Notes: generated by a model from the letters alone, not told the origin. A stretch of 64,000 bases of DNA from Atractiella rhizophila (GCA_021432655.1 MU271183.1:194926-258925); one strand, 5' to 3'. Shown: positions 28,584-59,544, counted from the stretch's first letter. Translations and numbers: made by a program.

Positions 28584-28585
28584 AT

Positions 28586-28852: not shown

Positions 28853-29002
28853 TGCAGTTATCTTTCCCTCTTCGTCCTGTCGATCATGTGTGCTTGGAGC
28901 TGATCGGAGAGGCATAGAGAGATGGGAGAGTTGTGGGGTATTCTGTGGTCAATGGGACTTTCAAGTTAGTAGCCAATTCCAGTACAGGAAGGTGTTGCCA
29001 CA

Positions 29003-36316: not shown

Positions 36317-36431
36317 GATACATGCTTTACAGTTCATGGCGGTGCCCTTACACATGTATATAAATTGAGATGTAATGGTGATGACCAGGCAATTGCCGAT
36401 CGGCGAACTTTATATAATGTCTGCCCTAATA

Positions 36432-38372
36432 GAAGAATACTCTCCCTCCACCCTCTCTCTCTTCTTCAAAACCAAAGTTAGAAAAAATGTTGGAGGTTTG
36501 GGGAGACATGAAAATGCACAATTCACTACCAACAGAAAAACGTATCTATCGCTCAGAAAGGATGTTCCAACTCTATACCTCACAACTGAAAAGCAGTTCA
36601 GAAAACTTGAACAAGACCTCATGTCAAGTTTCAACCAGTAAAATGCACATACTTCCCAGAATGTAATCGAAATTGTGCAACTGAGATCCGACCTCCAAAA
36701 TACAAACGACTTTACGATTGCTAGATTCCAGACTAACTCTTCCTAGAGACAGTGGAACCACCTCCACCTTTTTATCTCGAACAGACCCAACACCTCAAGC
36801 ATACTCCTCTCCTTCTATATATCGATCTGCAGTTTCACTATATGCAGGTATTAAACTTGTTTCACAATCTTCAAAGGAGTGCCCAACACAGCTCCGACCT
36901 TTTTACACGAAATTTACGGCTACACTTCTACTGTCCCAGGATAGTTCCCCTCAGAAACATTAAAAATTCTGATTACCCTCTCTTATATGAAAGATGGAGA
37001 TGCTGAAAAATCCGCCGCTAGGATTTTGTGCTGACTTGTTGAAAATGAGGAATAAATTCGTGCAGCAATTTTTGTCGGAGTTCAGATCGCGATTCTGCGC
37101 ATCCGATCACTAACCCATCAGTGATGGCTGGACCCCAAAACATGTTTTCTATGAAGAAAAACAGCTTGAAAATAACAAAACACAAGGAGAACAGACCACC
37201 TGTATTGTATCGACTGAGTACTAATCCCTCACTGAGCACCACCCCCCATACTCACAAAGCAAAAGAGCCCCCGAGGACATGGAGGTCGATGTGACACAAT
37301 CTAGACCCCTCGTTGTCAACGATGCCAAAGAATAGGACACAGGGAAAGGAATGTAGGACGTCCATGAACAAAGAATAGGACACTGGGAAAGCGAATATAG
37401 GACATCCATGAACAAAGAACAGCACCTCTGAGCACAGTGTGAATATTTCAGTTCCAAGTTTGCGCAACAAGACTGTCAAGCGACCCAGATCATTGAACTT
37501 CTGACGATAATGGTTGTTCCCCAATTGATAAGTCTAGATGAGGATTTTTAAAGCGGCGATGGGTGGAAGAAGTGTCCCCATTGCCGACCTGCAATTCTAT
37601 TTCATCACCTAAAACCACTTCTAACAAAGCACCACTTTGTGCAGATTTCCCACCTCCCGAATTCGACTCCCCCTTTCCAAAGATGAAAAAATACACCTTT
37701 GTTCCACCACTACATCTCTCGTCAGCTTGAAAACGAAACTCAGAACTACATTCCATCATCCATATTCCCAATTGCCGACAAGCCACATCGGTGCTTGTTG
37801 ACAGTGGGGCAACCATTTCCTTCATTTCCCCAAAACTCGTTTCTGCATACAACCTACCCATCACTCAACTTCCTTCCCCAGTAGCCAATTACAATATCGA
37901 CGGATCTCTCAATCAGGGGGGTTCCATCCATTCTGTTGCTTATTTACCCATTTTGATCGCTGCTCATCACAAAGTTTGGCAATTCGCAGTGGCGGAGTTG
38001 GGGACGGTTGACATGATCCGAGGTCATGATTGGCTGAGACACCACAACCCAGAAATTAACTGGGCTTTAGGGAAAGTAGAGTTCTCTCACTGCCCCACCC
38101 TTACAATGCGGTTGATGTGTCTACCCCATGCGAACAACTTCCATCGTCGTCTGCCTCAATACAAGCCACCATTACAAAATCGTAGAAACTGGCACAATAC
38201 GTGGCGGCGATGAGACGAAAAAGTGGTCGAAATACCGGTGCAAATTGGAATTTTGCAGACATCTTTGATGACGAAAAATTCAAAACGTTACTTCCTCCAC
38301 GATGACTGTGGGACCATGCCATTAACCTTAAAACAGATGCTTGTTCTCTCAACAATGTTAAAGCCTGCAAAG
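36432..38372 (+). mobile_element. Ty3/gypsy remnant, copy 2 (tandem duplicate)
   Basis: Near-identical to 32406-34350 at an offset of ~4020-4026. The protease ORF 37791-38213 is still open. Confidence 0.88.
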
Positions 38373-38705
38373 GTGACAGATTGGCAACGGACACACATCC
38401 CATTGACCAGTTATACTGCACGTTGTGTCTACAAGTGTGTGGCCTGAGCCTATTTAGTGGTGAGCTCCAAAATAAGCTTGGGTAGCTAGTGGGAGGAACA
38501 CCTGAGTGCCTTCCCCTAGACAGAGGAGTGAGTCCTATATCAACCATTACAGCTAAGGCCCCTACTCACTACCATTCCTTATGCCACTGTGACACAATTT
38601 ACACTCGTCACCGCCTGGCATTTTGCCGCTAATACTGAGACCCAAACTGCATACATTTCAGAGTTCAAAATCACCAATCCGGGCAGACTACTCGCTATTA
38701 CTACT

Positions 38706-39163
38706 TGTCAGGTTTGCATCTTACACAAGTCGGCGCCCATTCGCCGGATTGCGTCTCCTATCACCCATTTGCGTCCCCGGCGAATCGGCGCCTTTTCGCC
38801 CGTTTGCATTCTATACAAATCTGCGAACCGTCGCCACTCTGCGTTCTCCTGTCGCCTATTTGCACGCAGTGCATCACCACTTAGCCCCTTCATGTGTATT
38901 CTCCTCTTGTTAACTCCGCGTAATCCCACTGTCACTTCCCCCTTTTAGTTGTATTACATGTTTCATCTGCTCTTCTCTACACTCTGTGGCAGTGCTATTC
39001 CACTTGTATATATATATCGGAGAGTAGTGGAGGTGACCTTAAGAGTCTTCTCTTAGGTTTATCCCCACTACCGGTTAGTCGTTATGTCATATCATGCTCT
39101 TAGGTTTATCTCCACTACAGACGCATCGCCCATCGGCGACCACACATAGTGTTTGCCCTAACA
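38706..39163 (+). mobile_element. Solo LTR family A (duplicate of 34685-35161)
   Basis: Same termini and same flanks (CTACT / AGTGA). Confidence 0.9.
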
Positions 39164-39740
39164 AGTGAGTACCACTTAGTTGCTGAAACCATCCCTTTGC
39201 CGGAAGGACCACCTCTTCATTGGTTGTTCAAGCATGGTCTTGCTGAAATGATACTGGCTTCACTGAATACGTAGGCAAGGTACCGAAACACAGAGCTCTG
39301 AAGGCTGAGGATCAAAGAGGAGCCTTTTGAAGTGCTACTTTGTGGGGACATTGTGGGCAGAGGTGCATGGAGGCGCCATAACCCTAAGCTGACCATTGAC
39401 ATAATCTCGCCAATCAATCAACCACTTTCTGCTCTATCCCATACATACCACATCAGCTCCCGATAGCTCTCAGTATTATGGAGAAGGTGTCCTCCAGCAT
39501 TTCAGGTAAATCAGCATCATGGAGAGGATCATCCTACTCATGAGACCACGGAACTGTCCCCAGCAATCTGGATGCCTTCATCCTCATATCTCACCACTCG
39601 GTAAATCCTGTTCACCAGTCTGCACCATCACTATTTTCATCTTGGCAATCCTTTGATATTGTTCTACGTCTTATATCTTATCTCTAGTTATTTCCTTTGT
39701 TGCCTCCCCGATTTGGTTTATTCTATATGCTTCAAGATAC

Positions 39741-40199
39741 TATCAGGATTGCATCTTACGCAAATCGCTGCCCGTTCGCCGGATTGCATCTCCTAACGCC
39801 CATTTGCGTTGCCTGCGAATTGGCGCCTGTCGCCACTCAGCGTCTCCCGTTGCCTGTTTGTACACAGTGCACATTGGCACTCAGTCGCCTGTTCACCCAT
39901 TTGTGCCTATATCACCACTTAGCCCAATTGTGTCTATTCTCCTCTTATTAACCCCGCATAATCCCACTGTCACTTTCCCATTTTAGTTCTCTTACATGTT
40001 TCATCTGCTCTCCTCTACACTCTGTGGCAGTGTTATTCCGCTTGTATATAGATCGGAGAGTAGTGGAGGTGACCTTAGTGTATTCTCTTAGGTTTACCTC
40101 CACTACAGATTAGCCTTCAGGTCATATCATGCTCTTAGGTTTATCTTCATTACAGACGCATCGCCCATCAGCGGACCGCGCATAGTGTCTGCCCTAACA
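39741..40199 (+). mobile_element. Solo LTR family A (duplicate of 35739-36316, without the mini element)
   Basis: TSD GATAC on both sides. Confidence 0.9.
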
Positions 40200-40296: not shown

Positions 40297-42620
40297 CTAT
40301 TCCTTGATGAACCCCAGACGCCAGTCAAGATAACCCCAAAATTTGCTGTCTATATCTGGTGCATATCGGTAGTCATCTCCATCTCCACCCTCACAAACCC
40401 AGGACCCTAAGCAAAGGTCAAACTCGCTTCCTTCACACTCTCTTAACATGCTCATCGCCCTGCTCATCTCTCCATCCAGCCATGCTCCAAAAAATAGGAG
40501 AACCCTTAAGTGCTTACCTGGGTCCCTAACCCCTCTGTTCCCAAAGAACCAGCAAATGAAATCTAAGAATATAAACCCTTCAAATTCAAACCAGTACACC
40601 ATACAGTACCGAACATTTATTGAGGAGATTGCATTTGCATTTCTGAGGGTATAGAAGAACCTTTGGGGAACAATGTTGGAAGTTTCCTCACCACCATCGA
40701 GGTCAAGGGACTTGAGATGTTTGAGGTATGATAAATCCAGCGGGGTGGTTAGAATGGATGTCTTCCCATCAGGCGAGTAGGACTTGAGCCAGATTGCAAG
40801 TTCTTGTAGGAGTGGTGGCAGACACGAGCCTGAGATGGAGGCAGGGAGGGGACACAGATTGGCAAGGTGCAGCCGTGTTAGGGTTGGTGCAAGGGAGAGG
40901 GATGGGATAGGCGGATACCGATGAAGACATAGATGTTTCAGTTCCGAAGGTAATTCAAGGCCTGTTGATGTTGAAGAGCCAGAGTCTTCCACATTGTGAG
41001 CACGCAACTTTCTGATCCTGCCTCCTATCCTCCGCATAAAATTCTCGATCTCGTCATTCTTCCAACTCCTCCAACCTTGATCGCTAAAACCCACATCATC
41101 TAACCTTGTCAACCCTTCAATAGCATGTAACACAGTCTTTGCCTCCTCTTCATTCCAAAATGCACCTATACGAACTTCTTCAACATTAGGCGTGCCTGCA
41201 ATGATGTCTTTTGCCATCTCAACTCGATTCCTATCGTCAAGCTTCGTACCAGACATAAACGAGAGGGTTCTCCAGAAACGTCCAGCATGGGGATACAGTT
41301 TCAAACGAGCATACAGCTCCTGCACAGGAACATCTTGACGCCAATAAGGGATTGAAACAGTCTTCCAGAGCTGACAGACATCAGAGACTCGCTGGAAGGA
41401 AAGGTCATATTGATCATCTTCAAGATCTTCAATGTATTTTCCGAAAGAAAGGAATATGAAGACGAGAGAGAGTATCTCAGTAGGCAGCTGTGCAATAGTG
41501 CATGGACTAATCCCTGGAGTTCGAGTTGGGGACATGGAGAGTTGGATGATGTAGCCCTCACTGGTGGATGGGATGGCTGATGATTCCGATGCACTGACAG
41601 GAACGAAATTCCCACTAGAGAGGAGTGCAATGAGGTCAAAAATGACCTGAGAGCGATCATCTGGAAGATGGATCATGGATGTGAAGCACCTCATTTGCAC
41701 CTTGTCTGAATCCACAAATGTATGATGTTTCCTGTCCACAAAAGTTACTGTAATACTTTTCTCCTCCAATGTGATGCCAAAGTTCACTACACCATCAGAA
41801 TCAACTGCACTTTCAAGACATTCAAGTGAGAAGTTTGATGATTTCGACGGCCCATATTCCCATGACAGAAACTCAACAGGGAAGACAAAGGTGATCCGGA
41901 GCATGCGAATCAATGGAGGTAGCCGAGAAACGAAAGAGGGAAGAATGGAGATATGCATCGGAGTGTGTTCATCAAGGTGATTTATTGTGTACCAGGGGGC
42001 GATGAGATGAGCCAGTGCGGTTGACTCTGTTCCCTGACCATCCTTGCATGGAATCGACGTTTCCATTTCAATCAAACCTAACGCTCGTTCTATTTGGCTT
42101 TGAGGTTGAACCCTAACATTCACGCAATTTAAAATTGGCAAATGTTAATCAGCAAGAATACACACATATTATTTTCCATGCCAGCCAGCGAATGGTTCCT
42201 GTTGGATAACAACTGACTTGAATAGGGTGGAAGAGTGTAAGGGTGTTGGAGGATCTTGTTGCCTCCCGTTCCCAACAACGCATCATGTTGCGGAGACTCG
42301 TGTCCGAGGGGGGTAACGATGAATGTATCGTCATCAGAAACTGGATGGGGTCCACTGCTATGAAAGATAGCGCCAAAAAGGTTTTGACCACCGTGTCCGA
42401 CAGCAGGAGCATGACCTAGACCTTCTGCACAATATGATCCTCCTTTCTGCACTTCGAGTTGTCTTGTAAGGTCCTCGATGCGTGCTTCATATCTGCTCTC
42501 TTTGTCAGCCTCACTCTTCAAACATACATGGGACTTGCTTGCTGACCATCCGCTGATGCTCATTCTTTATATCCACCAAAGCTTGTCGAATGGCACAGAG
42601 CTGTTGAATCTGCTTGAAGG
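40297..42620 (-). CDS. F-box/LRR-like protein with an upstream Tup1-N-terminal-like coiled-coil exon; 5' end degenerate
   Basis: F-box-like IAQLPTEILSLVFIFL...VSDVCQLWKTVS followed by LxxLxL repeats (LKHLCL, LTRLHL, LQELAI, LKSLDL). Upstream exons join in frame through a GC-AG intron 42538-42493 and a GT-AG intron near 42166-42113. No intact first exon found. Confidence 0.7.
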
Positions 42621-43454
42621 CTGTTATAGGCACCGTTAGCAAACAGAACAAATGCAATTTATTCTTGTGACAAAGGTGTCATCTTTGACAATCGATTGAT
42701 CGAAGAACAAAGACGACAGAATCAAGGTTAACTATTTGCGGCTGCTGCGATATCTGACAATCATTACATCCCTTCGATGTGAGGAGGAAACAAAGGGGTT
42801 GTGATCCTCGAAAATTACGAGGTCAAACAGTTCTGTGAGTCTTTCGGGATATCCCACACATTATTCGGGCACGGGATGACTGTTCCATGTCCGCAGTCCC
42901 ACATCATTTCCTCATTCGCTCACCGTTCTCATTCAACTCCTCTCTCTCATGTCTCATGGCCAATAATTCACTCTCCAAAACCTCCGAGTCAAAAGCCACC
43001 ATATCTATGACTGCGGTCAGAGGTGTCGGTTTTCCGGACAGTCGTGAGGTGTACATCATGAGAAGGAAGGGCAGTCGTTTTAATCGCTTTGGATAAGGGA
43101 TAATTCCTTCAAAGCAATCAATTATAAAGGTTGCGGGTGAGGGCTGCTCCCATGATGTGATTGATCACATGGGGAAGGTTTGCGTCTGCTTGCTTGAAAA
43201 GGTTACGACTGGTTGAACAGTTTTTAACCGAACATCGCCGAATTGCAAGTGGCGAAGAAGAAGTGGATTTGAGAGGTGGAAACCACTTGCGCAAATCTAG
43301 GGCTTTTATGGCAAAGAAAGTATTATGGATCTCGTAGCATAGTCAGAACTTCTAACGCAATATTTTCTTTTGATTACCCGATTCTCCTCGCTCCTAGCCC
43401 AAGTCGCGGTAAACGTACTCGTAGGTATACAACTGGGTATCACATTGCGACATT

Positions 43455-46020
43455 TGGCGGAGGAGGACATCGTCTCTTCCCGTCATGGAAAGGCAAGATA
43501 GATAGAAACTTCGCCCCTAGGAGACAGAGACTCCATAGATTCCCACATTGAGGCGGAAAGTGGATATTTTCTTTCTGCTAACATACTACAACATACCAAA
43601 GTCACAATTCTAATTTCTAATCTAGACAAAAGGGTGCGACTGGAATGAGGAAGTTCAGTCCATATCAAGAGTGAATTTGTCATGGCGTACTGTCTCCTGG
43701 ATATGACAGCTGACAAGGGAAGAAAAGAAGGGATGTGTCCCTCTGTCCTCGTTTGACGATGTTGGATAACCCTAAAGGAAAGGAAGGGCAACAAGACTCC
43801 GGCTTCCAGGGACAATCATTGTCCAAGCATATCTCGATGCATCCATTCTGACTGCTACTCTGGCAAAGCATACCGAGAACGTTGGCCAATGCTGATGCAC
43901 TCTCGGACAATGTGTAGTAAATAATGCCCTGGGTCCAAACACGATGAAGCTATATGCAACGAGATCAAATTAAGTAGAGCTATAATGGGGGGACTTTTCA
44001 AAGCAAAGCAAAGGTTTTAAGGAAAGCGGGATCATACAAAAAGTTTGCAAACAGAGACAAATTGCAAAAACAAATGCGCGGTGAATAGGAATAGCAATAA
44101 AGTGTTCAGTCAGAAGTGTCAATTTTAAACCGGACAAACCAAGTCATGGGAGGTAACTGTTGCTGCAGTATCACGTAACAAACAACAGTCTTTTGGAAAG
44201 TTGATTGTGGTGGCAGAAGAACGGAAGGAAGGAGACTGGTGAGCGGGCTAGGTGCTATAGCCCATATGAACGTAATACAGGACTATGAGTTGGAGGTTGT
44301 GAAGATGACGGATGGACTGGTACAGAATGAAATTAATAAACAAGGCGTGCTCTCAACCAAACCGATCCTTGGTGCTCCTCAGTTCTGATGCTGACGGCAT
44401 TGATCGATCTATTGTGCCTTTTGAACAGCGTAAGCTGCGCAGGCTTTTTGGGTCATCTCGTTCCTCTCGTTAGCGCTTGTAACATCCTGGGCAACGAGAC
44501 AGCATAGACTTAGTCTGTTTCTCCCTGCTTCTGCACTGAGGAGCGACGTACTCGGTATCGTCTGGTCCTCTCATATCCACACTCATCCTCCTCCCTCTCT
44601 GGTAACTCCCCCACCCGCTCATTCCACTCATCCCAGTAATACTAGGGAGCCTCGGCCTCCCCATCCCCGTCCCAGTCGATGGCCTTTGTATCCCGATGCC
44701 CAAGTTTCCCATTTCCCGATCAACGTCCATCATATCGTCCGGTTGGTAGTGAGAGTGATTGTATTCGCTGCTCGTTCTCGACGAGGGAGAGGGGCTGGAG
44801 GAGCGTCCCCAGGAAGAGCCGGAGGAGGAGACGGGGGAAGCGGACCGGAGGGGTTGGGATTGGGTAGGTTGCGGAGAGGGGGCCCTCATGCCGAACATTC
44901 CTCTGGCTTGCTGAGGCTGCTGCTGCGTTTGAGGCCCTGGACTTGGTGCTCTTCTACCGAAGAGGCCCCCTGATGATGGAGGCGGAGCCGGTGGCCGTGT
45001 GGCTTGAGGCGGGGGAGTCGAGGCTCTCATTCCACCGAAGAGTCCGCGAGAGGGTTGAGTTTGGGGTTGTGTAGGAGGACGTGTCCGCATGGGAGGAAGT
45101 TGAGCGTTTGCGATGTTCGTCGAAGCAGAGGGGGTTCTCCCGAATAAGGTCGGACGAGGTTGCTGTTGGGCTTGGGATTGGGAGTAAGAAGGGGAGGGAG
45201 CAGCTTGAGCGTGCGCAGGAAAAGTCGCAGTTGAAGGACGGGGTGGGGGGATGGCTGCACGTACAGACGGGGGGTTCGGGGGACTCTTACTACTACTACT
45301 GGTGGAACTCCTGCCAAACAATCCGCCTGTCCCGCTTCGGTTCCTCGACGAGTTGTTGGCGTACATTTTAAATGGCACGATGACAGATTTGAGCGCTGGA
45401 TCGTTACTAACTCGTGGAAGGGTACGATACTCCCGATTATAATATGCGACGAGGTGCCAGCGCTCGACTGTCCCGTTCGATACCTGTCGATTGATACAGA
45501 TGGAGGCTCTGGTGAGAGGAAGCACGCCCGTTGGATAGTCGCGTTCGGTATAAGTGAGAAAGACGCCGGACATCCTGGACTGCCCGCACTGATGTTATCG
45601 ATCGATCAAGGAATAATAACAACTGGTTAGTTCATTTTCTCTGACGCAGTTCGAGAAGGAATTTGCACCTTCAGGTGATCAGTCCATCGCATCATCCCGC
45701 TTTTACCTTCCTCAAACACAAAGACGGCGCCATGCTGGATTAGCTCTTCCCTCTCCTGCTCGTCTAACCTTCTAGGCATGTCAACGAGCTTCCCAACAAC
45801 ACACGCGTGTACGATCTTTTCCACGTCGGTGATGTCTGCTACGTATCCATACCACGTAGCTTGCAACGACATATTACTTAGTGAGCCTGCGTTGGTTCGT
45901 CGTGGGAGGGTGGTAGGTTCGTTTCTGTAGACTTTGTTCGCTGTGAGAGGGCATCAAGCGACCTGCTCTTCATATATTGGTCGGATAGTGATAAACAAGG
46001 TTGGAGAAGATGAGCAATTT
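43455..46020 (-). repeat. Left arm of inverted duplication (WOPR gene, ~150 bp promoter, ~1 kb downstream)
   Basis: Reverse complement matches 54240-56990, for example atatccactttccgcctcaatgtgggaatctatg. Confidence 0.9.
44453..45872 (-). CDS. Gti1/Pac2 family (WOPR) transcription factor, copy 1 (full length)
   Basis: LQATWYGYV..D..KIVHAC..G.L..MPRRL...ER..LI.HGAVFVFEE.KSGMMRWTD, intron, CGQSRMSGVFLTYTE...LTRASI...WHLVAYY. Pro/Gln/Ser-rich tail. Last exon MLQALTRGTR*. Confidence 0.92.
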
Positions 46021-49000
46021 GTTGCTGAAAGAAAGTTGGGGATGATTGAGGGACCAAACGACGCCGAAACCCAATCAACGGGAGTGTAACAAGAAGACTG
46101 ACAAGAAGATATGCACACCAGGAGAAAAGAAAGATGAAGAGTCTCCACAACTATCTCGATGTTGACCGATACGAGGAATCACCAACTCTTTAGCGCTTCT
46201 ATGTAGAAGGTCGAATCGAAGGAGGAGAGACCTAACCTGCTCCAAGAACTCAGGGACACCAAAGAAGCCGCAGCGAAATTTAGGCGCCTCTGCATCTGAG
46301 ATTTGAGCTCCTCCAGCTTAAATTTGTGAGGCTTAGAAAACGTACCATACGATCCTGACTCTCGGTTCTGAAGACAAAATGGTTCCTCGCTCGACGAACT
46401 TATTGAGGAGACCACCGTACATCGCCTGAAGCCAACACCGAGCTCGAAGTTTTGAAGCGTGCCGAAATGTGTGAGCAATTCTGCACCGAGCGCGTAGGTC
46501 CAGATGTTGAGGAAGGAGAGCTCCCTAGTTGCTGCGAAGGAGGCATTCGCAACTTTTAACGCAAAACTAGACGGAAGTGAACCTTGCGCCCAAATTTAGA
46601 ATGGGATGACCGATGGAAGGGAGTCTATGCACCTGAAGTAGGATAACGTGCGCTGTGTCTGTAGAGGATACGCTATAGTCCTCTCAATCTCCATCGTCCA
46701 AAAAATGAGAGAAAGCACCGTACGACTTGTTGAATCTCACATCCCTTCGGAATGATAGGGCATGTCTCGTCCAATCCGTAAAATGCAGAAGGGACGGTAT
46801 GCCACGTACTGAGGTTCCCTCACTTCTTGAAATGTTCCGCGTACTCGTTGTTGCAGGATTTCCACTCGGTGTCGCCTTTCCTCCCTTCCCGGCACGCGAA
46901 CGAGAACCGGTCAGCCCATCGACTAGCTCAATCGACTCGGCCGGGATGATCACCAATCGCCAATCCGTGCAATCTGAGAAGCTGGTTTGGGAATATTTGC
47001 CAGAGATGGAACAAGATAATTGCTTCTTCTGAGTGAATGAGCCACAGAGCTGGAGTAATCGCATGCCGCAATACGTCATACTGGGCTTTGCAGTGGTCTC
47101 ACCAACTTGAACCTTCCAAGGCCAACGCGCAAAGGATTTCTACTCAATGGGGAATAAAAAGGACTTGCAATCGAGAAGCCGAATCACGAAAATCGTCGCC
47201 TTCTTCCTTTCTCTTGGCTGTCTCACTTCAGACTTCTGCGGTTGCTTGGGATACGAGTTGGGTATGGCAAGGGTATGGACTTGCTTCCACTGGTATCTTC
47301 CTGCCTTGGATCCTCCTGCCTTGGGTCCTCAACTCCAAACACCCGTATTTCCCCCAACGATAGAAAAAAATGGCATCAAGCCTTGAAGTTAGCAAATACC
47401 AAATTAATTGGAACTACTGGCAACATGTTCAAAATTGTGCTCCTTCCAAACAATTCTCGTTCGTTACAAGAAAACTGCAAGGATGAATACTGCTACTGGA
47501 AATGGGTATAAGGCTCAAGGGAACTGAACTTCTACGACAAATCAGGAATTGGTATCTCTCATAGATTTGTGTGGAACCTCATTCGTATCAAGAGCAAAGA
47601 TTTATTAATAAGAGAACCAAGAATACTTCTTTTCTCAGCCGGAGTGTAGGCGAGGAGCAAGGTTTGAGAGGATATGGAAGGGGTATGTGAAAAAACTGAA
47701 AGTGAAAGGATGCTAGAATTCCATCGTCTGAATTCCGCATCCCATTATGATTGCTATGCTGGCGACCCAGGAGACGAACATTTCAATCACTCGCATTCAC
47801 GAGCATCCTAGCCTGCTGAGGAGACCCCCTTCACTTGTGTCACCTTCGGTCAGAGGCGATGTGCTCCGTCCTCGGAGAGGGAGATGGTGAAAAGCATGAA
47901 GAAGGGCCGCTCAGATGAAGTTACTCCCCGTCACGATCTATCCTCTCCATAGGCATTGGATATTGAATATTGAATGAGGTAGTGATCCTCGAGCAACCTC
48001 GAGCATGGTTCTCTCCCCGGACTTCGAAGTTGTCAATGAAATAAGCAGGGAAGCTTCCGAGAAACGGATGGCGCCGATAAGATCCTCCATAATGAAAACG
48101 GTTCTCTAGGATACGAGACACAACACATACTATGTGTTACGCAGAACTTTAATACATCCAGATCGTTAACACCATGCATCAAAGTCATTCAAATTCTCAT
48201 CAATCCCCTAGATATTCTGAATTCAGAATCTCCTACTAGTAAAGCATATGCAACCTTTGTCTCCCAACATGAAGATAATTTTAGCAGTATTCCCTTTTGA
48301 ATATCAATGAAAATATGCATTGCCTTATCAGGTGTTTTCCCGAGGGAATATTCGCTCTAATCGCGTTTTTTTTGCTCAAATTCAAGAGAAATGACAAAAT
48401 CAGCGTTTCTCGAAGTGACTTTCCCATCCATTCACGAATAACTGAAAGCCAGCTATGTTAAAATGCCAAACTCGAGTACCGCTAATTCGGATCCATTTGA
48501 AGTGTTATATCTCAAAGATATCCTCCGTTTCAAAAAATTTGTATGCCTATAGTCTACGCTTGTATTGAGGTTTTTCAGGGTGTTATTTCTCTGCCAGTGC
48601 GCTAAGTTTCAGTCGTCAGCGCATAAGCTTCAACGTCGAAACTTACGAAATTGATTCATACTCTAGTGTACTAATGCTCCTCCTTGCTTCCTAACTATTG
48701 TGTTCTTCCAGACGAGAGTATATCAGGCAATTTCAACCGCAGTTGCAACGGAAGAAGCAAAGGGCGCTTGTTAGTAACAGCCACAGATTGCGTTTCAAAC
48801 CACGCAAAACATATCGGAAACAAGGCTGAAACTCGTCCAGTCTATTTTTATGATTGAGAAGACGGGATCTCTTTTTGGAACAGGAACGTCTTGGAAATCG
48901 GAAACCGGTTTCAGTCCTTCCCCGCTTGACTGTCAAAATGCGAACATCTCAATCATTTGCATTCATGGGCATCCTGGCCTGCCGAGGAGAGCCCCTTCAC

Positions 49001-49556
49001 TTGTGTCACCTGCGGTCAAAGGCGATGTGCTCTGTCCTCGGAGCGGGAGATGAAGAGCCTGAAGAGGGGACGCTCGGTGAAATTACTCCGTGTCAGGATC
49101 CGTCCTCTCTATAGGCCATTGAATATTGAATATTAAATGAGATAGAGTGTCGCCTCTTCTTTGGCCTCATACTCATCGTGATCATGAGATACACGGCTTC
49201 AAGCTTCTGTTTGCAAGGCGAACAAGGCAAGGTCTCACAATCTCCCGCTCACGGGGTATCTAGGCCTCGGTACTAGGCATCATCAGAGAAGAGCTCTTTG
49301 TCAAGCAATAAAAATTTGGCCCGTCTAGGTCCTCCCAAATCAAACTATGGAATATGGGAATAGCGACTTCCCGTTTCCGTCAGACACATGCAGCAAAGTT
49401 GCCGCGACCCGACCCACGAACTCCATTTACAGTAGCTATATTATCTAGCCCTCGAGCTGCCAAAAGCACCTAGAGTGTTGAAAATCACGCAACCAGAAAC
49501 AGAAACCCAGAATGAATCACATTAGCATTGGCGCTCTGTCCCACTTTTTTTTATTG

Positions 49557-49664
49557 AAGACTGTAAGGACACCCGCTTTTCATAAGGCTGTAAGGACACC
49601 CGCTTTTCATAAGACTGTAAGGACACCCGCTTTTCACAAGACTGTAAGGACACCCGCTTTTCAT
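49557..49664. repeat. 27-bp x4 minisatellite AAGACTGTAAGGACACCCGCTTTTCAT
   Basis: Four contiguous units with two substitutions and no spacers. Confidence 0.95.
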
Positions 49665-49970
49665 TTCGAGCTTCCACAATGAAACAAGCAAAGACTCGTC
49701 AGATTACCGAAAGAGTTTCACGTCATAGCTAGGACCGCATACTGGCGCCATGCAGCGCTTCGCGCTTACCAATGTCCTGAATCTCAACTGTATTGTGCAT
49801 AGAAACGTCGGATGAGATTTGCATGATATTAACATCGGTTGCTATTCATCAGCAGGAACCACTCTTCTTCGTTTCTGAGAGTTGTCACGAATGCAATACG
49901 ATAGAATATTGATTCAAATTAACAACAAAATAGTGGGCGACGTCACAAACAGGAGCTTGTAAAGAAGAAA

Positions 49971-50019
49971 ACATTATGCAAAGATCAACATTATGCAGAG
50001 ATCCACATTATGCAGAGAT
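49971..50019. repeat. 17-bp x3 tandem repeat ACATTATGCAGAGATCM
   Basis: acattatgcaaagatca acattatgcagagatcc acattatgcagagat. Confidence 0.85.
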
Positions 50020-50213
50020 GTGTTACATATGTGTACACGAAACGTTCGAAGCCTTCTGGAGCTTCCCTCCTCATCAAACTCACTGGGTCTCAATAAATTG
50101 GAAAGAGCAAATCACTCCATGCCCACAATAACGCCCGCGAAACCTGCAAGCAGACTAGCACACTCCACAACCTCACACAAAGAACCAACAGGCTCCCTTC
50201 GTCCAGAGGTCTT

Positions 50214-50899
50214 ATGTCTTTGCAACCTACTTGGTACGGTTACGTAGCTGACATCACCGACGTGGAGAAGATCGTTCACGCTTGTGTTGTAGGGTTACTA
50301 GTTGACATGCCCAGAAGGTTAGATGAGCAGGAGAGGGAAGAGCTAATCCAGGACGGCAGCGTCTTCGTCTTTGAGGAAGGCAAAAGCGGGATGATGCGAT
50401 GGGAAGATCATTTGAAGGTGCATATTCCTTCTCGAACTGTATCAGAGAAAATTAAGAACTAACTGGTTGTCATTATTCCTTAATCGATCAACAACATCAG
50501 TACAAGCAGTCCAGAATGTCCGGCGTCTTTCTCACTTATACTGAACGCGGCTACCCAATCGACGCGCTTCCTCTTACCAGAGCCTCCATCTGTATCAACA
50601 GACAGGTATCGAACTCGACAGTCGAGCGCTGGCACCTCGTCGCATATTACAATCGGGAGTATCGTACACTTCCACGAGTTAGTAATGATCTAATCAATTT
50701 CCACTCGCTGTCGCGTTTCCTCCCTTCCCGGCAGCGACAAGAGGGAAGAATTGAGCGCCATTCCCCGCGTAGGCTGGCGCCGTTGCGATGGCCAAAGGCT
50801 CTGCACCAGTCGCGGTGGGACCTGGGTACCCGACTTGGCTTTCGTCGGGAAAGAGGTCAGGGGATGCTGATGCTAGTTATTTTCATTGGCGGCGGTTAG
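50214..50899 (+). CDS. WOPR copy 2: DNA-binding domain only, homology ends at 50690, unrelated Arg-rich tail (truncated paralog or pseudogene)
   Basis: Exon 1 50214-50417, intron 50418-50500, exon 2 homologous up to RVSND. RWED replaces RWTD. Frame is open to TAG at 50899. Confidence 0.8.
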
Positions 50900-53800
50900 C
50901 ACTCCCGTCTGGGCCTGTCAGGAAGGACGAAGACAGGGGAACACGCACTCCCAGCAGCAGGGAAGACGGTGAAAGTGGCCGTTGCAGCCTGCCGTTTCTC
51001 AGCGAAGGGAGATGCGAAAGCCCCTCCAGCAAGAGTGAGAGCACAAAGAACAAACACCTTCATCGACATCGTGGAACGCCTTGAAGAATCACCACGACAG
51101 CCTCTCTTGGAGAGTGGATTGGGATCGGTCGAATAAAACCACGCCAGCCTCCTGCTAGCGCCAGCCTTTTATCAAGCCAGTGCTCCGCGTCGCTATTCTT
51201 AGACCGAGAGAGGAATGAAAGCGAGCGCGATGTCTGGCTATAATAATGGGATCCACGTTCAGCCCAATGACGCACAGCGAGAGAGAAATCCATGCCGAGC
51301 TACAAATGAGACAACAGGCATAGCGGACAATTCAGAAACTGATTGCAAATGTTAAACGTGACTGTGCAGGCTTCCCATAATCTCTGGAGAGTGGGAGACC
51401 AAGTGCTCGTGCCACTACAACGCTGCGATTCGAGAGAACAAAGCTGAGAGGAAAGGTCCAAGTCAGGGCTCAGAGCGAGACTCGATCGTCAACTCTGTGC
51501 CCAACCAAATGTGAGAAGCGGGACGTGTCCCGCAACAGCTTTCGCCATTCAAATTCGAGGATGTACCTTTCGCCCAATTTTCGATGTTGTCAAATGGTAG
51601 GTCCTGGTGAGACAGATGAAGGACGGGAATTTGTAGGCATGAGCGAAAGAGAACCGGACAGTCCATCAAGCTCATTCGACTCGGACGGGATTATAGACGA
51701 GATCACTCTGATGCCAGTCGCCAATCTGTACGATCTGGAGAAGCTGGTTTGGGAATATTTACTAGAGATGGAACAAGATAGCCGCTTCTTCTTCTGAATG
51801 GCCACAGAGCTGGGGCAACCACAGGTAATCGCATTCCGCAATACGTCATACTAGGCAGGCATCGATTGCAGTTGCCAGCCTCACCAACTTGAACCTTCCA
51901 AGGCCAATGCACAAAGGATTCCACTCAATGGGGGTAAAAGGACTTGCAATCTTGAAGCTCAATCACGAACATTGTCCCTTCTTCGTTCCTGTTGGCTCGA
52001 ACTGACTCTTGCAAGAGAACCTCACTGCAGACTTCTGGGGTTGCTTTGGCATACGAGTAGGTTATGGACTTGCTTCCATTGGTCTCTTCCTGCCTTGAAT
52101 CGTCCTGCCTTCGGTCCTCAACCCCTTGCACCCTATTTCCCCCAACGCCAGAAAAAGTTGGTATGAAGCCTCGAAGTTAGTAAATACCAAATTGAAATTG
52201 GGACCACTGGCAACACGTTCAAATTTGTGCACCTTTCAAACAATTGTCTTTCACTTGTTACAAGAAAACTGCAAGGATGGAAAAACACTACCTGGGAAAA
52301 GGTACAGGGCTCGACAGGGTTCAAGGGTCGCACTGAGGAACTGAACTTCCACTACAAAATCAAGAATTCACAGTTCTCTAGATTTGTGTAGCACCGCATC
52401 AAGATTTATAAAAAGTGAACCAAGAACACTTCATTCCTCAGTGCCGTTGGAGACGAGCAAGGTTTTAGAGGATATCTGAGATTTCGTATGAAACGGCATA
52501 TGAAAAACTGAAAGAGAATGGACGCTAGAACTCCGTCCTCTGAATTCAGCATCCCATTAGATTGCTACGCTGACGAACGCAGGAGACGAACATTTCAATC
52601 ATTTTGCATTCACGAGCATCCGAGACCGCCGAGGAGCCCTTCACTTGTGTACCTTCGGTCAGAGGCGTTGCACTCCGTCTTCAGAGCGGGAGATGGCGAA
52701 GAGCATGAGAGGGACACTCAGATGAAATTAATTCCGTGATGATCCATCCTCTCCATAGGCATTAGATATTGAATGTTGAATGAGGTAGTGAGGACCGCCT
52801 GGTCTTCAGCCTCATCATGATCATGAGATACACTGGGTTCTGTTTGCAAGGTGAACAGGGCACGACCCCAGTCTCCCGCTCTGACAAGGGAGACTCGGTA
52901 CCGGCATCACTAGAGAAAAGCTTTTTTAAGCAATAAAATGTGGCCCGTCTATGTTCTCCCAATCAACCATGGAATATGGGAACAGCGACTTTCCGTTTCC
53001 GTCAGACTTTGCAGCAAACTTGCGGCGGCCTGACCCACGAACTCGATTTACTGTAGCTACATTATCTAGCTCAAACAAAACCAGCTAGGGCATCGAACAT
53101 CACGCAACCAGGAACCGAAAGCCAGAATGAAGCGCCGTTGCACTGGCGCTCTACGTCCCACTTTCATCAAAAAATTCTGTAAGGACGCCCGCTTTCATTT
53201 CCAGCTTGCACCTTCTGTGGGGTTGCGGCGCCATGGTTTCAGTGGCCCAGCGTTTAGCTGCACATATTCATCAACATCGATTTATGCCCTCTTCGCAAGT
53301 GGACTTGCTCAACCTCAGATTCGTACCTAAGGCGTCCCATCCCATCACAAATGGAGATATGTGGACTGATGGAAGCCCCAACCGTGCGTGAAAAAACTTC
53401 GCTGACCGTTTTTAAGTTTGTTAGGGTCAAAGTCTGTGCTCGACTTTTCAAACTATGTGAGGATTATTCCTAGGTGAGCCATGTCGTTAATATCTTGATC
53501 TCCACTCGAGGCTAGATTCAACATACGCCGAACTGTAACAACCTTGAAAGCTTCAATCTTGGTCAACTTGGAGGAGGGCGTCGTAAGGGACAAAACCGCA
53601 CCTGTTGCGCACGGAGGGATCATGCGCACGATGCTCCCAAAGAAAACAGGAAACCTACTTCTGCCGCACTAAGGAGAGACACCAGAGAACGCGGAAGTGA
53701 TCCTGAAGCGTGGTTCTCTCCACATGTCAATGAACAAGCATATAAGCGTCAGATTACCGAAAAACTAGCAGGCGCCTAACAGTTTCATTCATTCTCCTAT

Positions 53801-54239
53801 ATCCTTCATAATGAAGCCGTTACGCCAACACACGCCTTGCAGACGTTTATCAGAGTTCGGGAATGTAAACTGTATCGTGCATAGAAACGTCGGGTGAGTC
53901 TCTGAACATAAACTTCGTTTGTTACTAATACCGAAAGAGCTTCTGCTTCTTCTTCTAATTTGACTGCAAGAATCACAGAGTCATAAATGCAATACTCTAC
54001 CATATTGCAGGAAGATGCAGTGTACACAGGAACAGGATAACCAAAAATCTCCAGGACTTGACAAAGAATAAAGATGGGCTTAAATAAAGTTGAGGATGAT
54101 TGAGGGATCAACGACGCCGAAACCCAATTAACGGGATTGTAACGAGGAACGAGGAGAAGATATGCATCACCATGCATACAAGAAGAAAAGAAGCCGTAGC
54201 TTCGCCTCAAAAGGTCTCATCTTCATCTCGCATTGTGTC

Positions 54240-56990
54240 AATTGCTCAATTGAATTCTTCCTTCTCCAATCTTGTTTATACCGTCCAAGAATATATGAAG
54301 AGCAAGTTGCTTGATGCCCTGAACATCGCCAACAAAACCTACAACCTGACCAGGACGAACCACCTACCTCTCACGCAGTATCAACGCTCCTGTCTTCTAG
54401 AAGTATCATGTCGTTGCAACCCACGTGGTATGGATACGTAGCAGACATCACCGAAGTGGAGAAGGTCGTGCACGCTTGTGTGGTTGGGAAGCTCGTTGAT
54501 ATGCCTAGAAGGTTAGACGAGCAGGAGAGGGAAGAGCTAATCCAGCACGGCACCGTCTTCGTATTTGAGGAAGGCAAAAGCGGGATGATGCGATGGACCG
54601 ATCACTTGAAGGTGCATGTCCCCCTCGAACCTTAAGACAGAGGAACGTAAAGAACTGACTGGTTGTCATTGTCCCTTGATCAATCAATAATATCAGTGTG
54701 GGCAGTCCAGAATGTCCGGCGTCTTTCTCACTTATACTGAACGCGACTATCCACCAGGCGCGCTTCCTCTTACCAGAGCCTCCATCTGTATCAACAGACA
54801 GGTATCGAACGGGACAGTCGAGCGGTGGCACCTCGTCGCGTATTACAATCGGGAGTATCGTTCGCTTCCACGAGTTAGTAACGATCCAGCCCTCAAATCT
54901 GTCATTGTGCCATTTAAAATGTATGTGAACAACTCGTCGAGGAACCGAAGCGGGACAGGCGGATTGTTTGGCGGGAGTTCCACCAGTAGTAAGAGTCCCC
55001 CGAACCCCCCGTCTGTACGTGCAGCCATCCCCCCACCCCGTCCTTCAACTGCGACTTTTCCTGCGCACGCTCAAGCTGCTCCCTCCCCTTCTTACTCCCA
55101 ATCCCAAGCCCAACAGCAACCTCGTCCGACCTTATTCGGGAGAACCGGTCTACCCTCTTCAACAAACACCGCAAACGCTCGGCTTCCTCCCATACAGACA
55201 CGTCCTCCTGCACAACCCCAAACTCAACCCTCTCGCGGACTCTTCGGTGGAATGAGAGCCTCGACTCCCCCGCCTCAAGCCACACGGCCACCGGCTCCGC
55301 CTCAATCATCAGGAGGTCTCTTCGCTAGAAGAGCACCAAGTCCCGGACCTCAAATGCCGCAGCAGCCTCAGCAAGCCAGAGGAATGTTCGGCATGAGGGC
55401 CCCCTCTCCGCAACCAACGCAATCCCAACCCCTCCGGTCCGCATCCCCCGTCTCCTCCTCCCGCTCTTCCTGGGGACGCTCCTCCAACCCCTCTCCCACC
55501 TCGAGAACGAGCAGCGAATACAATCACTCTCACTACCAACCGGACGAGATGATGGACGTTGATCGGGAAATGGGAGGCTTGGGCATCGGGATACAAAGGC
55601 CCTCGACTGGGATGGGGATGGGGAGGCCGAGGCTCCCTAGCGTCAGCGGAATGAGTGGAATGAGTGGGTTGGGGAGTTATCAGAGAGGGAGGAGGATGAG
55701 TGTAGATATGAGAGGACCAGATGATACTGAGTACGTCAACCCCTCATTGCAGAAGTAGGGAGAAAAAGACTAATGCGATGTTTTCGTGTTTTCCAGGATG
55801 TTACAAGCGATAACGAGAGGAACGAGATGACCCAAAAAGCCTGGCAAGCTTACCCTGCTCAAAAAAGGCACAATGCATCGACCAATGCCCTCAGCATCAG
55901 CACTGAGGAACACCAAGGATCGGCCGCTTGCGTGTTTGGTTGAGAGCACTCTTTCTTCATTTACTTCATTCCGTACCAGTCCCATCCATCATCTTCGCAA
56001 CCTCCAACTCATAGTCCTTCATTTTGTTTGTTCATATGGGCTATAGCACCTAGCCCACTCACCAGACTCCTTCCTTTCAGCCTCTGCATTTGTGATTGCT
56101 TTTTCAATTCGTCAGTGACTTTCAAAGTGACCACTTCCGCTCCTCTGGCAACACACTCAACTTTTCCAAAAGAACAAAGTGCTGTATGTTACGTGCTACT
56201 GCAGCAACAGTTCCCTCCCTTAACTTGGTTTACTTGTCGTTCAAAATTGACACCGCTTACTGAACATTTTATGGCTACATTTATTCCCCGCGCATGTTTT
56301 AGCATTTGTTTCTGTTTGCAAACTTTTATGCCGTATGCCGATGCTTCTCACTTTGATCAAAACCTTTGCTTTGCTTTGAAAAAGTTACCCCGGTCTATAG
56401 CTTTACTTAATGATCCACTTGTATATAGCTGCCCCGTGTTTGGACTCAGGGCGTTGAAAGTTTGCTCCACATCGATCAAGAGTGCATCAGAATTGGCCAT
56501 GCTCCCGTGTTCTCGATATGCGTCGCTAGAGCCGCGGTTAGGATGGATGTATTTAGATACGCTTGGAGGAGTGTTTTTGGGGGTTGGAGTTTTGTTGCCC
56601 TTTCCTTCGAGTTAATCCTGCATCGTCAAACAAGGACAAAAGACTGGAAGAAGCTTCGAAGAAGAATGAGGGACTCATCCTGCCTTCTTTTCTTCCCTTG
56701 TCAGCTGTCATATTATATTTAGGAGATAGTACGCCGTGACAAATTCACTCTTGACACAGACTGAACTTTATCATTCCAGTCGCACCAGCTTGTCTGGATT
56801 GGAATTGTAACTTTGGTATGTTGCCGTACCTTAGCAGAAAGAAAAGCCCTCACTTTTAATTTTAAACGCTGCTGCTGTTTAGGAGATATCCACTTTCCGC
56901 CTCAATGTGGGAATCTATGCAGTCTCTGTCTCCTACAGGCAAGATCTATCTTGCCTCTCCACGAGGGGAACGACGATGTCCGCCTCAAAC
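54240..56990 (+). repeat. Right arm of inverted duplication
   Basis: Matches the reverse complement of 43455-46020. Similarity is highest in the CDS. Confidence 0.9.
54408..55830 (+). CDS. Gti1/Pac2 family (WOPR) transcription factor, copy 3 (full length)
   Basis: Same motifs and intron positions as copy 1. Last exon MLQAITRGTR* (TGA 55828-55830). Confidence 0.92.
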
Positions 56991-57848
56991 GAACAAAGAA
57001 TTGTAGACGTACTAGCACTAAGGGTGTCCTTCCACTCAACTCGCAGGACCTCTCGCAGGTAAGCCGGTAAAACCTGTGCGGGTAGGGAATGGACACGGGA
57101 ATCCATTTGCCAATGTTGAAACCACGGGCAAGCGGAAGCCGCCTGACGACTTGAGACTTGAGTGGTCATTGCAAAGGCACAATGAGACTACGTAAAGCTT
57201 TACAATCTGGTGTTTCTCTATTTCTCGCTGCAATGAGAAGTAAAAAGGACAATTTATGCTTGGGTTTACACTTTCGCTTCACGCTAAAGGGTGATGAAAA
57301 GGTCTAGCATCAGCTGCTGAATTGCATGGCATCCGAAGGCATTCTTGTTTGAAAAGTGAACACAATTAAGTTCTTGGGCTTCTTCGTCTCCTGCAATATT
57401 CTATGTTTTCTTCATCTGATGCGGAAACCTTCCAGCTTCGGTATCGTGCCCTCCACGACTCCCAACTCCTGCTGCATCGTCATGAGTCTGTCTGAAACCC
57501 TTCAACTCCCATCCTGCCAGTTATCTCGGGGGTAAGCTATTCAACGACTGGGAACCCCTTGCGGCACAGGGAGGGGTGAGGATGCGTTAAGAGCAGTAAA
57601 CCCTTTCGGGAAAACGCAGCGAACGACGGCTGTCCCCTGTGACAGGCCTAAGCAGCACGGTAACCGCAACTCGCGCTAGGAGCGAGGAGAATCGGGAAGT
57701 GGGAAGGAAATACTGAATGTTGCTGGCGATGCCACAACATCCATGATCCTTTCCTTGCAATAAAAGCTCGAGAATTGACGCAAGTGCTTCCCATCTCCTC
57801 CTTGTCTTTTCTCTCCTCCAGTTTCAATCACGACTAGAAACGACAGTG

Positions 57849-59544
57849 ATGAGACACAGCACATGGCCCACAATCATCTACAACTTTGCTTTGCTTGCAT
57901 CGACAGCGACTTCAGCACCGTATACTGGTCCAAATCCTTTCAAGAATGGACATGAAGGCTTGGGCTCAAAGTACGGCTCACTTACAACTAAACCAGCCGA
58001 CCCTGCTCAACTCATCGAGAATCCGTTCCCCATGACGTGAGCAGATTTGCTCTCCGCCTTCTGTGTTCTGAGGACGGTATCAGATGCCATGCCGAGTACT
58101 CAGGCCCTGGCAACAGCGGCTCGTTCGTAGGTCTGGCGTGCGTTCCTTCTTCTCTAGAAACTTAGACCTACAACCTGACAACCACTCCATAGCTGTCATG
58201 CTGCAGATCCGAATTCATTGGCCAGTACAAGGACAGAGAAAATGGCGAACGAATCTGAGGACATAAGCAAGCGTCAACCAACGTACGTGACTATCACGTA
58301 CAATCTAACATTGAAACTGATGAAAGTCCCACTCTCTCCGACAGCTGTGGCGTCACCCCTAATGAAGAGAAGATGGGACAACTTCGGAAGAAGTATAGTG
58401 ACCGCATGTCTAAGAATCGCAAAACTCTGGAATCCTATGCAAAGCCGACAACAGAGGCAGGTGCTATCATTGCCGTGCGCAAGTATTTCCTTTAATTTCC
58501 TTCTCTCCATCTCCCCAGCCTGCTCCAGCTCTTACAAATCATCAGATTTCCACGTCATCACTGCCAACACGACCAGAGCCGGTGGAAACCTTTCTCGCCT
58601 CGATGTAGATTTGAGTGCGCATCTTTTCTTCATTACCCACGAATTGCGTCCCTGATGACGAGAGATCAGGCATATTAGCCCTTAATAATGGCTTTTCAGG
58701 GACTGGCCTCCAATTCGAGCTCGCATCACTAGACTACAGTCAAAACAGCACCTGGTTCCTCAAAGCAAACACCTTTGAGCAAGATGCGAATGGAGGACTC
58801 ATCGCTAGCAAAGAGGGAGCACAGATAGATTATGAGATGAAGACCGCTCTGCGCGTAGGAGAAGAGAAGGACTTGAACGTTTATACTGTTGCATTTGAAG
58901 GCACTCCTTCGTTGCTGGGCTATTCGTAAGATTATCATCATTCTTTATCTGGTGGCAGAGACACTGATGATCAGGATGTGATGTGGTAGTGCTTTTCCAG
59001 AAGATTACGAGGACAAACCAATCTTTGATGGTGTGCTTATACATTACCGAACTACTCCGGGAGGAGGATTCACTACGTGAGCACCACAGTAGCCTAATCT
59101 AATGAGGTTGATTGAACCTTCATGCACAGAGCTGATCAAGGAAAGAACTTGGTGCACGAAGTCGGGCACGTCATCTCTCCCTCATCACCATTTGTGCATG
59201 GAAGTCCTAACAGACAGTGCAGGCATTGGGTGGGGCTCTTCCACCCATTCCAAGGCAGCTGTGATGATTTAGATGACGGCGGAGACATGGTAGGCTTCTC
59301 CCTGCTTCCGCCATGAGGACTACACTCAGTGAGGGAACAGGTCGATGACACGCCACCCGAACTCGAACCTACTGGAGGTTGTCCAGTCTCCAATCCACCC
59401 AAAACGTGCCCAGGAGAAAATCAGCCAAGCTCCATCTTCAACTATATGTCGTACACTTTCGATGCTTGTAAGAACCCGTTCACTCCTGGTCAGATCACCA
59501 GGTTAAGATCACAGTTGGACATGTTTAGGGGGATTGAAATTTGA
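57849..59544 (+). CDS. Secreted M43 (pappalysin/ulilysin-like) zinc metalloprotease, multi-exon
   Basis: Signal peptide; FHVITAN; MKTALRVG..DLNVY; LLGYS; DGV; GKNLVHEVGHWVGLFHPFQG (HExxHxxGxxH across a 57-nt intron); VDDTP; NYMSY Met-turn; FTPGQITR. Confidence 0.92.

Follow-up and report, generated by a model that had tools for sequence, protein, structure and literature searches.

A 64,000-nucleotide (nt) stretch of Atractiella rhizophila DNA (GCA_021432655.1, MU271183.1:194926-258925), here called the window, contains three Gti1/Pac2 (WOPR) paralogs packed into 11.3 kb, and this report concerns the locus that holds them (43455-56990, counted from the first letter of the window). Copies 1 and 3 are full-length genes transcribed away from each other, and copy 2, which lies between them, is a truncated, apparently constrained, DNA-binding-domain-only gene at a duplication junction. 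We read the locus as a WOPR cluster built by duplication in which copy 2 is a tail-less modulator of its paralogs, and give this reading a probability of about 0.6. An earlier interpretation made from the DNA alone (the sequence-only reading) had proposed a pair of activators and a competing paralog in a switch locus with an invertible spacer. Its assignment of the genes to WOPR, its description of the family as low-copy and its view that copy 2 is not freely decaying agree with our results, while the invertible spacer does not.

WOPR regulators govern major lifestyle switches of fungal pathogens and symbionts. A root-endophyte lineage with at least eight copies would be a natural experiment in the diversification of a master-regulator family, and this lineage includes a clustered trio and a DNA-binding-domain-only copy apparently under selection. 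The junction is mapped exactly, and a single event there would have produced two truncated genes, of which one is still transcribed and the other appears to be still under constraint. If copy 2 is active, the WOPR family would have its first natural antagonist form; the value of the finding hinges on expression and binding data.

Layout and WOPR identity of the three copies

The limits of the locus are the outer ends of two inverted arms of ~2.6 kb each, separated by a spacer of ~8.25 kb (46010-54260). In a blastn self-comparison of 42-59 kb, 44225-46009 matched 56076-54261 at 87.9% over 1829 nt in inverted orientation and, further out, 43460-44227 matched 56986-56134 at 70.9% over 881 nt. Identity along the arms is 87-100% in coding sequence, 69% in the intron and 55-80% in the 3' flank. 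A tblastn search with the two exons of copy 1 matched exactly three loci in the window. The picture of three close paralogs, the outer two full length, facing outward (copy 1 on the minus strand, copy 3 on the plus strand) and lying in ~2.6-kb inverted arms, was already part of the sequence-only reading and is borne out. The arms and gene models are as follows.

43460-46009, no strand: left inverted arm, with copy 1, its 3' flank and ~137 nt of its 5' flank (blastn self-comparison)
54261-56986, no strand: right inverted arm (self-comparison and identity profile)
45872-45669, minus: copy 1 exon 1, 68 aa, WOPRa (Pfam PF09729)
45589-45668, minus: copy 1 intron, 80 nt, GT..CTAAC..AG (sequence reading, intron alignment)
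45588-44470, minus: copy 1 exon 2, end of WOPRa, WOPRb and S/P/G/R/Q-rich tail (sequence reading)
44551-44487, minus: copy 1 possible second intron, with a possible exon 3 at 44486-44453 (424 aa in place of 440)
50214-50417, plus: copy 2 exon 1, 68 aa, WOPRa, Glu at the conserved R-W-T-D Thr (Pfam PF09729)
50418-50500, plus: copy 2 intron, 83 nt, with donor GT, branch-like CTAAC and acceptor AG kept (three-intron alignment)
50501-50899, plus: copy 2 exon 2, codons 69-131 homologous (to 50690), then 69 unrelated codons
54408-54611, plus: copy 3 exon 1, WOPRa (Pfam PF09729)
54697-55758, plus: copy 3 exon 2, WOPRb and tail, preceded by an 85-nt intron (sequence reading)
55731-55796, plus: copy 3 possible second intron, with a possible exon 3 at 55797-55830 (423 aa in place of 421)

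The Pfam Gti1_Pac2 profile (PF09729) matched exon 1 of copies 1, 2 and 3 with E values of 6.1e-20, 1.4e-18 and 3.9e-19 and bit scores of 72.5, 68.1 and 69.8, all above the gathering cut-off of 23.6, confirming the family that had been assigned by eye. As read from the sequence, the gene models give products of 440 aa (copy 1), 200 aa (copy 2) and 421 aa (copy 3). The intron interrupts the same codon in all three copies and has GT, a CTAAC/CTGAC branch-like site and AG. Copies 1 and 3 likely have a small second intron close to the 3' end, where there is a GTACGT donor and the last exon, of 34 nt, is conserved; the A. rhizophila gene models disagree on the 3' end of this subfamily. Copies 1 and 3 are 90-91% identical to each other as proteins, and their tails consist of 16% S, 16% P, 10% G, 10% R and 9% Q. 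Copy 2 shares 90-91% amino-acid identity with them across 131 common codons; its homology ends at 50690 (codon 131), and it has no low-complexity tail.

Structure prediction was run on the close paralog P0002, an A. rhizophila gene model, with a 47-sequence alignment, and stands in for the spliced proteins of the window. P0002 is 83-84% identical to copies 1 and 3 and 88% identical to copy 2. In the model, the predicted local distance difference test (pLDDT) score is at least 94 for residues 1-140 (97 for 131-140) and averages 73 for 141-150; block means of 40-64 mark the tail as disordered. The model superposed on Wor1 (4qtj_A) with Z 20.8 and a root-mean-square deviation of 2.0 over 145 residues (model 2-151) and on YHR177W (4m8b_R) with Z 19.7 over 153 residues (model 1-154), while the next best structural match reached just Z 5.7. 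Direct sequence matches to the PDB chains gave E values of 3.7e-11 and 2.4e-8. WOPRb interdigitates with WOPRa in one beta-sheet fold in the model, and as modelled, the subfamily has a genuine WOPR domain of ~150 residues in which WOPRa and WOPRb are joined almost without a linker.

The WOPR-DNA structures of Wor1 of Candida albicans and YHR177W of S. cerevisiae (PDB 4qtj, 4qtk and 4m8b) share this fold over ~150 residues. The proteins described here have in common with them the WOPRa sequence, the Arg-Trp-Thr-Asp loop, an HL(I/V)AYY strand and a disordered low-complexity C-terminal tail. They differ in having only ~30% identity and a nearly absent WOPRa-WOPRb linker, and in being encoded by clustered, multi-copy genes rather than a single one. 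Compared with the protein kinase A (PKA)-type motif K-R-W-T of Wor1, Met stands three places before the Thr here.

Conserved residues were counted over 143 relatives matching the loop pattern, leaving aside 9 of 152 proteins that do not carry it. Copies 1 and 3 have the R-W-T-D loop; copy 2 has its Arg, but Glu for Thr. The loop Arg, kept in all three copies, is essential in Sge1, as the available part of PMC2762075 reports for an R66S mutant. The near-invariant Trp that follows the loop in the motif W-S-P-S-R is found in 140 of the 143, and Cys or Tyr replaces it solely in the Atractiella clade: Cys in copies 1 and 3 and in the gene models P0001 and P0002, Tyr in copy 2 and P0005. Because the fold matches, we regard this replacement as a deviation within the family and no ground for exclusion.

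The nearest proteins, all from A. rhizophila (Pucciniomycotina), have 83-87% identity with copies 1 and 3; no product of the window has an identical counterpart among them, and the closest relatives outside the genus have at most 38% identity. The subfamily has eight gene models in A. rhizophila (P0001 to P0008) on at least six contigs; P0001 and P0003 share a contig of 79 kb. Of the others, P0002 and P0007 are also close paralogs, P0005 and P0008 have diverged, and P0004 and P0006 are WOPR fragments fused to a MitMem_reg piece. P0005 also has an F-box-like stretch (by eye), P0007 carries 477 unrelated residues and the tail of P0008 is read in another frame. The odd fusions among P0004 to P0008 point to frequent partial duplication and decay of the subfamily.

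Elsewhere the family is small, as the sequence-only reading had supposed. The available text of PMC8232033 gives one Gti1-type and one Pac2-type gene per genome without notable duplications, and that of PMC4917244 gives two WOPR genes for most fungi. Ustilago maydis (Ros1 and Pac2) and Cryptococcus neoformans, likewise basidiomycetes whose WOPR proteins have low-complexity tails, possess two such genes each in the portions available of PMC4917244 and PMC6243373, compared with three in 11 kb and eight gene models here; Ros1 controls many effector genes (PMC4917244). Our literature search, which was not a full survey, turned up neither a described WOPR expansion nor a truncated WOPR paralog, and Gti1/Pac2 is not mentioned in a rust transcription-factor preprint or in a 2014 paper on transcription-factor prevalence. 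By sequence comparison, we take the cluster to be a local group within a lineage-specific expansion of a diverged WOPR subfamily.

The root metatranscriptome run X6 contains WOPR contigs that are 91-93% identical to copy 3 (54700-54890) and copy 1 (45257-45407). At 54754-54756, an X6 contig encodes Met where copy 3 has Pro; Met is the state of P0007, and another paralog of the subfamily is therefore transcribed in roots.

Duplication history and the tandem junction

Direct repeats pair 46896-47985 with 51643-52791 (75%), 48941-49579 with 52587-53195 (77%) and 50103-50690 with 54298-54886 (83%). A sensitive comparison added 46858-46899 and 50697-50737 (92.9%, E 2e-12). The repeats delimit two tandem units that meet next to a small gene, and a further tract links the two arms.

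46858-50690, plus: tandem unit A, with a 37-42-nt secreted-protein remnant (46858-46899), the upstream region and copy 2 to codon 131
50697-54886, plus: tandem unit B, with the secreted-protein gene, a 3.3-kb intergenic region and copy 3 to codon 131
50691-50696, no strand: 6-nt tandem junction separating unit A from unit B
50694-51116, minus: small secreted-protein-like gene, 99 aa (spliced contigs, sequence reading)
45133-45294, no strand: 162-nt tract identical to 54985-55146 of the other arm (self-comparison, identity profile)

The secreted-protein gene starts with an ATG at 51069 and has exon 1 to 50949, a 76-nt intron (50948-50873, GT..AG) and exon 2 at 50872-50694, so its stop codon TGA (50696-50694, minus strand) lies inside the 6-nt junction. 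Its product has a hydrophobic N-terminus, which we read as a predicted signal peptide, a KR site and an Ala/Gly/Pro-rich remainder. Seven public runs had shares of at most 0.10 over 50000-51200, and contigs of four of them (X1, X2, X3 and X6, from four studies) were compared with 43000-58000; X6 is recorded as RNA, and X1 and X3 are merely guessed to be RNA. Contigs matching the gene at 98-100% identity were present in all four runs. The 50872/50949 splice joint was found in contigs of X1, X3 and X6, and in X2 a loose end of 12 letters carried this junction. These contigs show transcription and splicing of the gene. Its protein has no Pfam match, an ESM Atlas search with exon 2 gave no usable match, and an exact 40-mer of the gene had 0 matches in metagenome contigs.

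The 42-nt block common to the two units corresponds to the final 13 codons of the secreted-protein gene. Its unit A remnant keeps its frame open and has no stop, which suggests that the ancestral secreted protein was longer than 99 aa. About 905 bp kept in unit B are missing from unit A; we take unit A to have lost them because its 42-nt block directly abuts the next block.

This anatomy indicates two steps. An inverted duplication would have produced two full-length WOPR genes transcribed away from each other. A tandem duplication of ~4 kb, with one end in the secreted-protein gene (its last 13 codons included) and the other at WOPR codon 131, would then have created copy 2; it would also have removed the 3' end from the second copy of the secreted-protein gene, whose stop codon was left in the junction. 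By this reconstruction, one tandem duplication truncated both the unit A WOPR gene and the unit B secreted-protein gene. These two genes are convergent, and the 69-codon tail of copy 2 is the antisense of secreted-protein exon 2 and part of its intron.

In the WOPR part, synonymous divergence (dS) is 0.32 for copies 1 and 3, 0.33 for copies 2 and 3 and 0.44 for copies 1 and 2. Neutral divergence of ~0.3-0.4 is thus alike for both duplications, and with introns 69% and flanks 71-77% identical, both must be old. Within the arms, which are otherwise ~8-12% diverged, the perfect 162-nt run has a chance of ~1e-6 per start position at ~8% divergence by our arithmetic, and a second perfect run of 93 nt starts at 45071/55211. 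The tails of copies 1 and 3 have a dS of 0.14, compared with 0.32 in the WOPR part. The two runs look like gene-conversion patches between copies 1 and 3, and selection together with such patches would keep these two copies alike. In a protein tree, the pairing of copies 1 and 3 was supported (94/97) and nothing else was, with copy 2 unplaced among the A. rhizophila paralogs; we ascribe this to gene conversion.

Constraint on copy 2 and its possible role

Constraint was measured over the 131 shared codons (393 coding nt) of the three copies only. The ratio of nonsynonymous to synonymous divergence (dN/dS) was 0.14 and 0.19 in the pairs involving copy 2. Copy 2 has 32 private changes, of which 18 are synonymous and 14 nonsynonymous; the corresponding figures were 7.6 and 24.4 in a neutral simulation that mutated the majority sequence at random with the same transition share. 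Only 0.005% of 20,000 runs (P=0.00005) gave 14 or fewer nonsynonymous changes. The coding sequence of copy 2 has 0 indels at a dS of 0.33-0.44, although the introns (80, 83 and 85 nt) and flanks are indel-rich; its start codon, frame and splice signals are intact, and ~110 nt 5' of the ATG are 83% like copy 3. The decayed A. rhizophila WOPR fragments P0004, P0006 and P0008, unlike copy 2, show deletions and shifted frames. Neutral evolution, which the sequence-only reading had named as fatal to a functional copy 2, fits these data poorly. We read this as purifying selection on the WOPR part, with constraint for most of the history of copy 2, and consider it probable that copy 2 is still a working gene.

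The private changes of copy 2 are rich in transversions (14 transitions and 18 transversions; 12:3 in copy 1 and 9:6 in copy 3), and none of the three copies shows a C-to-T excess like that of repeat-induced point mutation.

By fold and family, copies 1 and 3 would be ordinary WOPR regulators, with an N-terminal monomeric DNA-binding domain of ~150 residues and a disordered S/P/G/R/Q-rich tail. Copy 2 is most likely made as a tail-less WOPR protein that modulates its full-length paralogs and would probably occupy the same sites without a tail. It keeps residues 1-131 of the P0002 model, including the loop and all helices and strands of at least three residues up to E109-118; with core strands, helices and loop Arg retained, it may fold and bind. 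In the available text of PMC4917244, a WOPR-only fragment of Ros1 binds DNA in vitro. WOPR proteins bind DNA as monomers through both conserved regions, according to the parts available of PMC8232033 and PMC4917244, and copy 2 could therefore interfere only by competing for sites or for domain partners, not by poisoning a dimer. A dominant-negative role is possible on these sequence features.

Copy 2 retains one regulator domain and lacks the effector part, the structure expected of a microProtein-type truncated regulator. The plant LITTLE ZIPPER and miP1a/b microProteins and the Id proteins are truncated paralogs that keep a dimerisation domain and poison the dimer. Like them, copy 2 is a paralog from a partial duplication, with a single regulator domain and no effector part, and stands beside its parent genes. 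Unlike them, it belongs to a family described as monomeric in the available portion of PMC8232033 and would compete for sites.

Several observations weigh against a functional copy 2, and they are shared by the chief rival explanation, that copy 2 is a functionless relic of partial duplication, unexpressed or non-functional, which has not yet acquired a disabling mutation. It was born as the by-product of a partial tandem duplication, in a genome where WOPR fragments are common (P0004, P0006, P0008), and it lacks the whole tail and the last 15-20 residues of the fold. The sequence-only reading credited it with nearly the whole WOPR domain; the frame, the intact intron and the missing tail stand, but the domain amounts to 131 of ~150 fold residues. 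The stretch from 132 to ~150 holds a helix (132-135), a strand-like segment (144-145) and most of the conserved motif L-x-x-P-S-x-D-P-x-L-x5-P-x3-Y-P, and its loss may impair stability or DNA binding. The Glu of copy 2 replaces a loop Thr that is kept in 138 of the 143 relatives, none of which has Glu or Asp there, and which aligns with Thr67 of the Wor1 PKA motif in the alignment to the PDB chain. At this site, a Thr-to-Ala change impairs Wor1 and Gti1 function, according to the available part of PMC2837409. Given the missing stretch and the Glu, folding and DNA binding of copy 2 are uncertain.

The sequence record of copy 2 has its own weak points. Its branch dN/dS of ~0.23 is 2-5 times that of copies 1 (0.05) and 3 (0.12), as calculated by us from three distances; with three sequences, this branch includes any stem of copies 1 and 3, and gene conversion between those two would raise the number of changes that look private to copy 2. 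An open frame is weak evidence on its own, with a 0.23 probability of no stop under neutrality, and the selection signal could predate a recent loss of function. The 69-codon tail is mere antisense of another gene and has no relatives: copy 2 exon 2 with its tail had no homolog among proteins of 72-231 aa, and a metagenome protein-pattern scan with exon 2 yielded 263 pattern matches and no relative. In 43000-58000, no contig of the four runs lies on the WOPR part of copy 2, a result that is neutral as to transcription. A Wor1-type 9-bp core site, with one mismatch allowed, had 11 matches in the window against 15.2 expected and is not enriched, which is uninformative for so diverged a clade.

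What a relic fits poorly is the excess of synonymous private changes, the coding sequence free of indels, the retained donor, branch-like and acceptor signals and start codon, and the conserved ~110 nt upstream. We regard a relic as rather unlikely, though it is the alternative we take most seriously.

A more elaborate version of the modulator reading is speculative, and we consider it improbable as a whole. The Glu, as a phospho-mimic at the site of Wor1 Thr67, would let copy 2 compete for or pre-set the sites of its neighbours, giving an activator/antagonist module in an expansion confined to Atractiellomycetes. The convergent overlap would then make the antagonist and the effector-like gene mutually exclusive and tie the WOPR circuit to root colonisation.

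Alternatively, the sequence of copy 2 could have been kept as a 3' untranslated region (UTR) or terminator of the convergent secreted-protein gene and not as coding sequence. The stop codon of that gene is 4-5 nt from the end of copy 2 homology, and with the stop in the junction, any 3' UTR must run antisense through copy 2 exon 2. However, a UTR role would leave nonsynonymous sites in the frame of copy 2 unprotected and would not keep the intron signals or exon 1, which are 300-480 nt off. The X1 and X2 contigs that reach this end also stop at 50697 and do not enter copy 2. We hold this explanation to be very unlikely.

The ends of those contigs, from the independent runs X1 and X2, fall within 1-6 letters of 50697, which is the tandem-unit boundary; they could mark a transcript end, or a point where the assembly graph branches owing to two diverging copies in the sampled fungus.

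Inverted arms and surroundings of the cluster

The sequence-only reading had suggested that recombination between the arms could flip the spacer; as a switch, such a flip would choose which WOPR gene, or copy 2, is expressed. Arms of ~2.6 kb do flank the spacer, and the perfect 162-nt and 93-nt tracts imply past ectopic recombination between them. A 97-nt segment just inside the arms (46024-46120) has an 84.7% match at 54078-54172; the two run in the same direction, opposite to the arrangement of the arms, and could reflect a small secondary inversion or simply be a short, unrelated repeat. On the other side, the arms are ancient paralogs with 88% identity in the gene and ~71% in the flank, and the spacer contains the promoters and 5' halves of both copies 1 and 3. 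A crossover between the arms would therefore swap 3' halves and flanks only, and each promoter would keep a complete gene. Copy 2 and the secreted-protein gene would be turned round with the spacer, with respect to the flanks. A Pfam scan of 26 open reading frames (ORFs; at least 80 aa) in and beside the spacer gave no domain in any of them (0/26), and hence no recombinase was found.

In the fim and hin switches and the FLP repeats of the yeast 2-micron plasmid, inverted repeats bound an invertible segment. The segment here is likewise flanked by inverted repeats. Unlike in those systems, no recombinase gene was found, the arms are long and diverged, the promoters are inside the segment and the genes run outward; by anatomy, there are neither short near-identical sites nor any reconnection of promoter and gene. 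The flip-switch idea is thus not supported, and we consider it highly improbable. Because of the conversion tracts, the arms appear to recombine on an evolutionary scale; they are a by-product of duplication, not a switch.

Least probable of all is that the three copies or the arms are an assembly artefact. The region is repeat-rich, with a copia element, long terminal repeat (LTR)-like repeats and, 4-12 kb from the cluster, a tandem duplication of 4 kb at 96.6% identity. Against an artefact, DNA divergence among the copies is 8-29%, their indels, intron lengths and flanks are not the same, and an independent annotated A. rhizophila genome also has several paralogs, two of them on one contig.

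Rfam and transfer RNA scans of the window found nothing. Its other features lie to the left of the cluster.

25648-30991: copia-type LTR retrotransposon (gag, pre-integrase, integrase SH3), LTRs 94.5% identical
34685-35161, 35738-36069, 38706-39163 and 39740-40199: LTR-like copies
32264-36069 and 36321-40071: tandem duplication of ~4 kb, 96.6% identical, with strongly negative GC skew

By its sequence identity, this tandem duplication (32.3-40.1 kb) appears young; its only long ORF (33782-34426) has no Pfam match. Adjoining the cluster is a 615-codon open frame (40297-42144, minus) that has no Pfam match and shows an F-box-like motif by eye.

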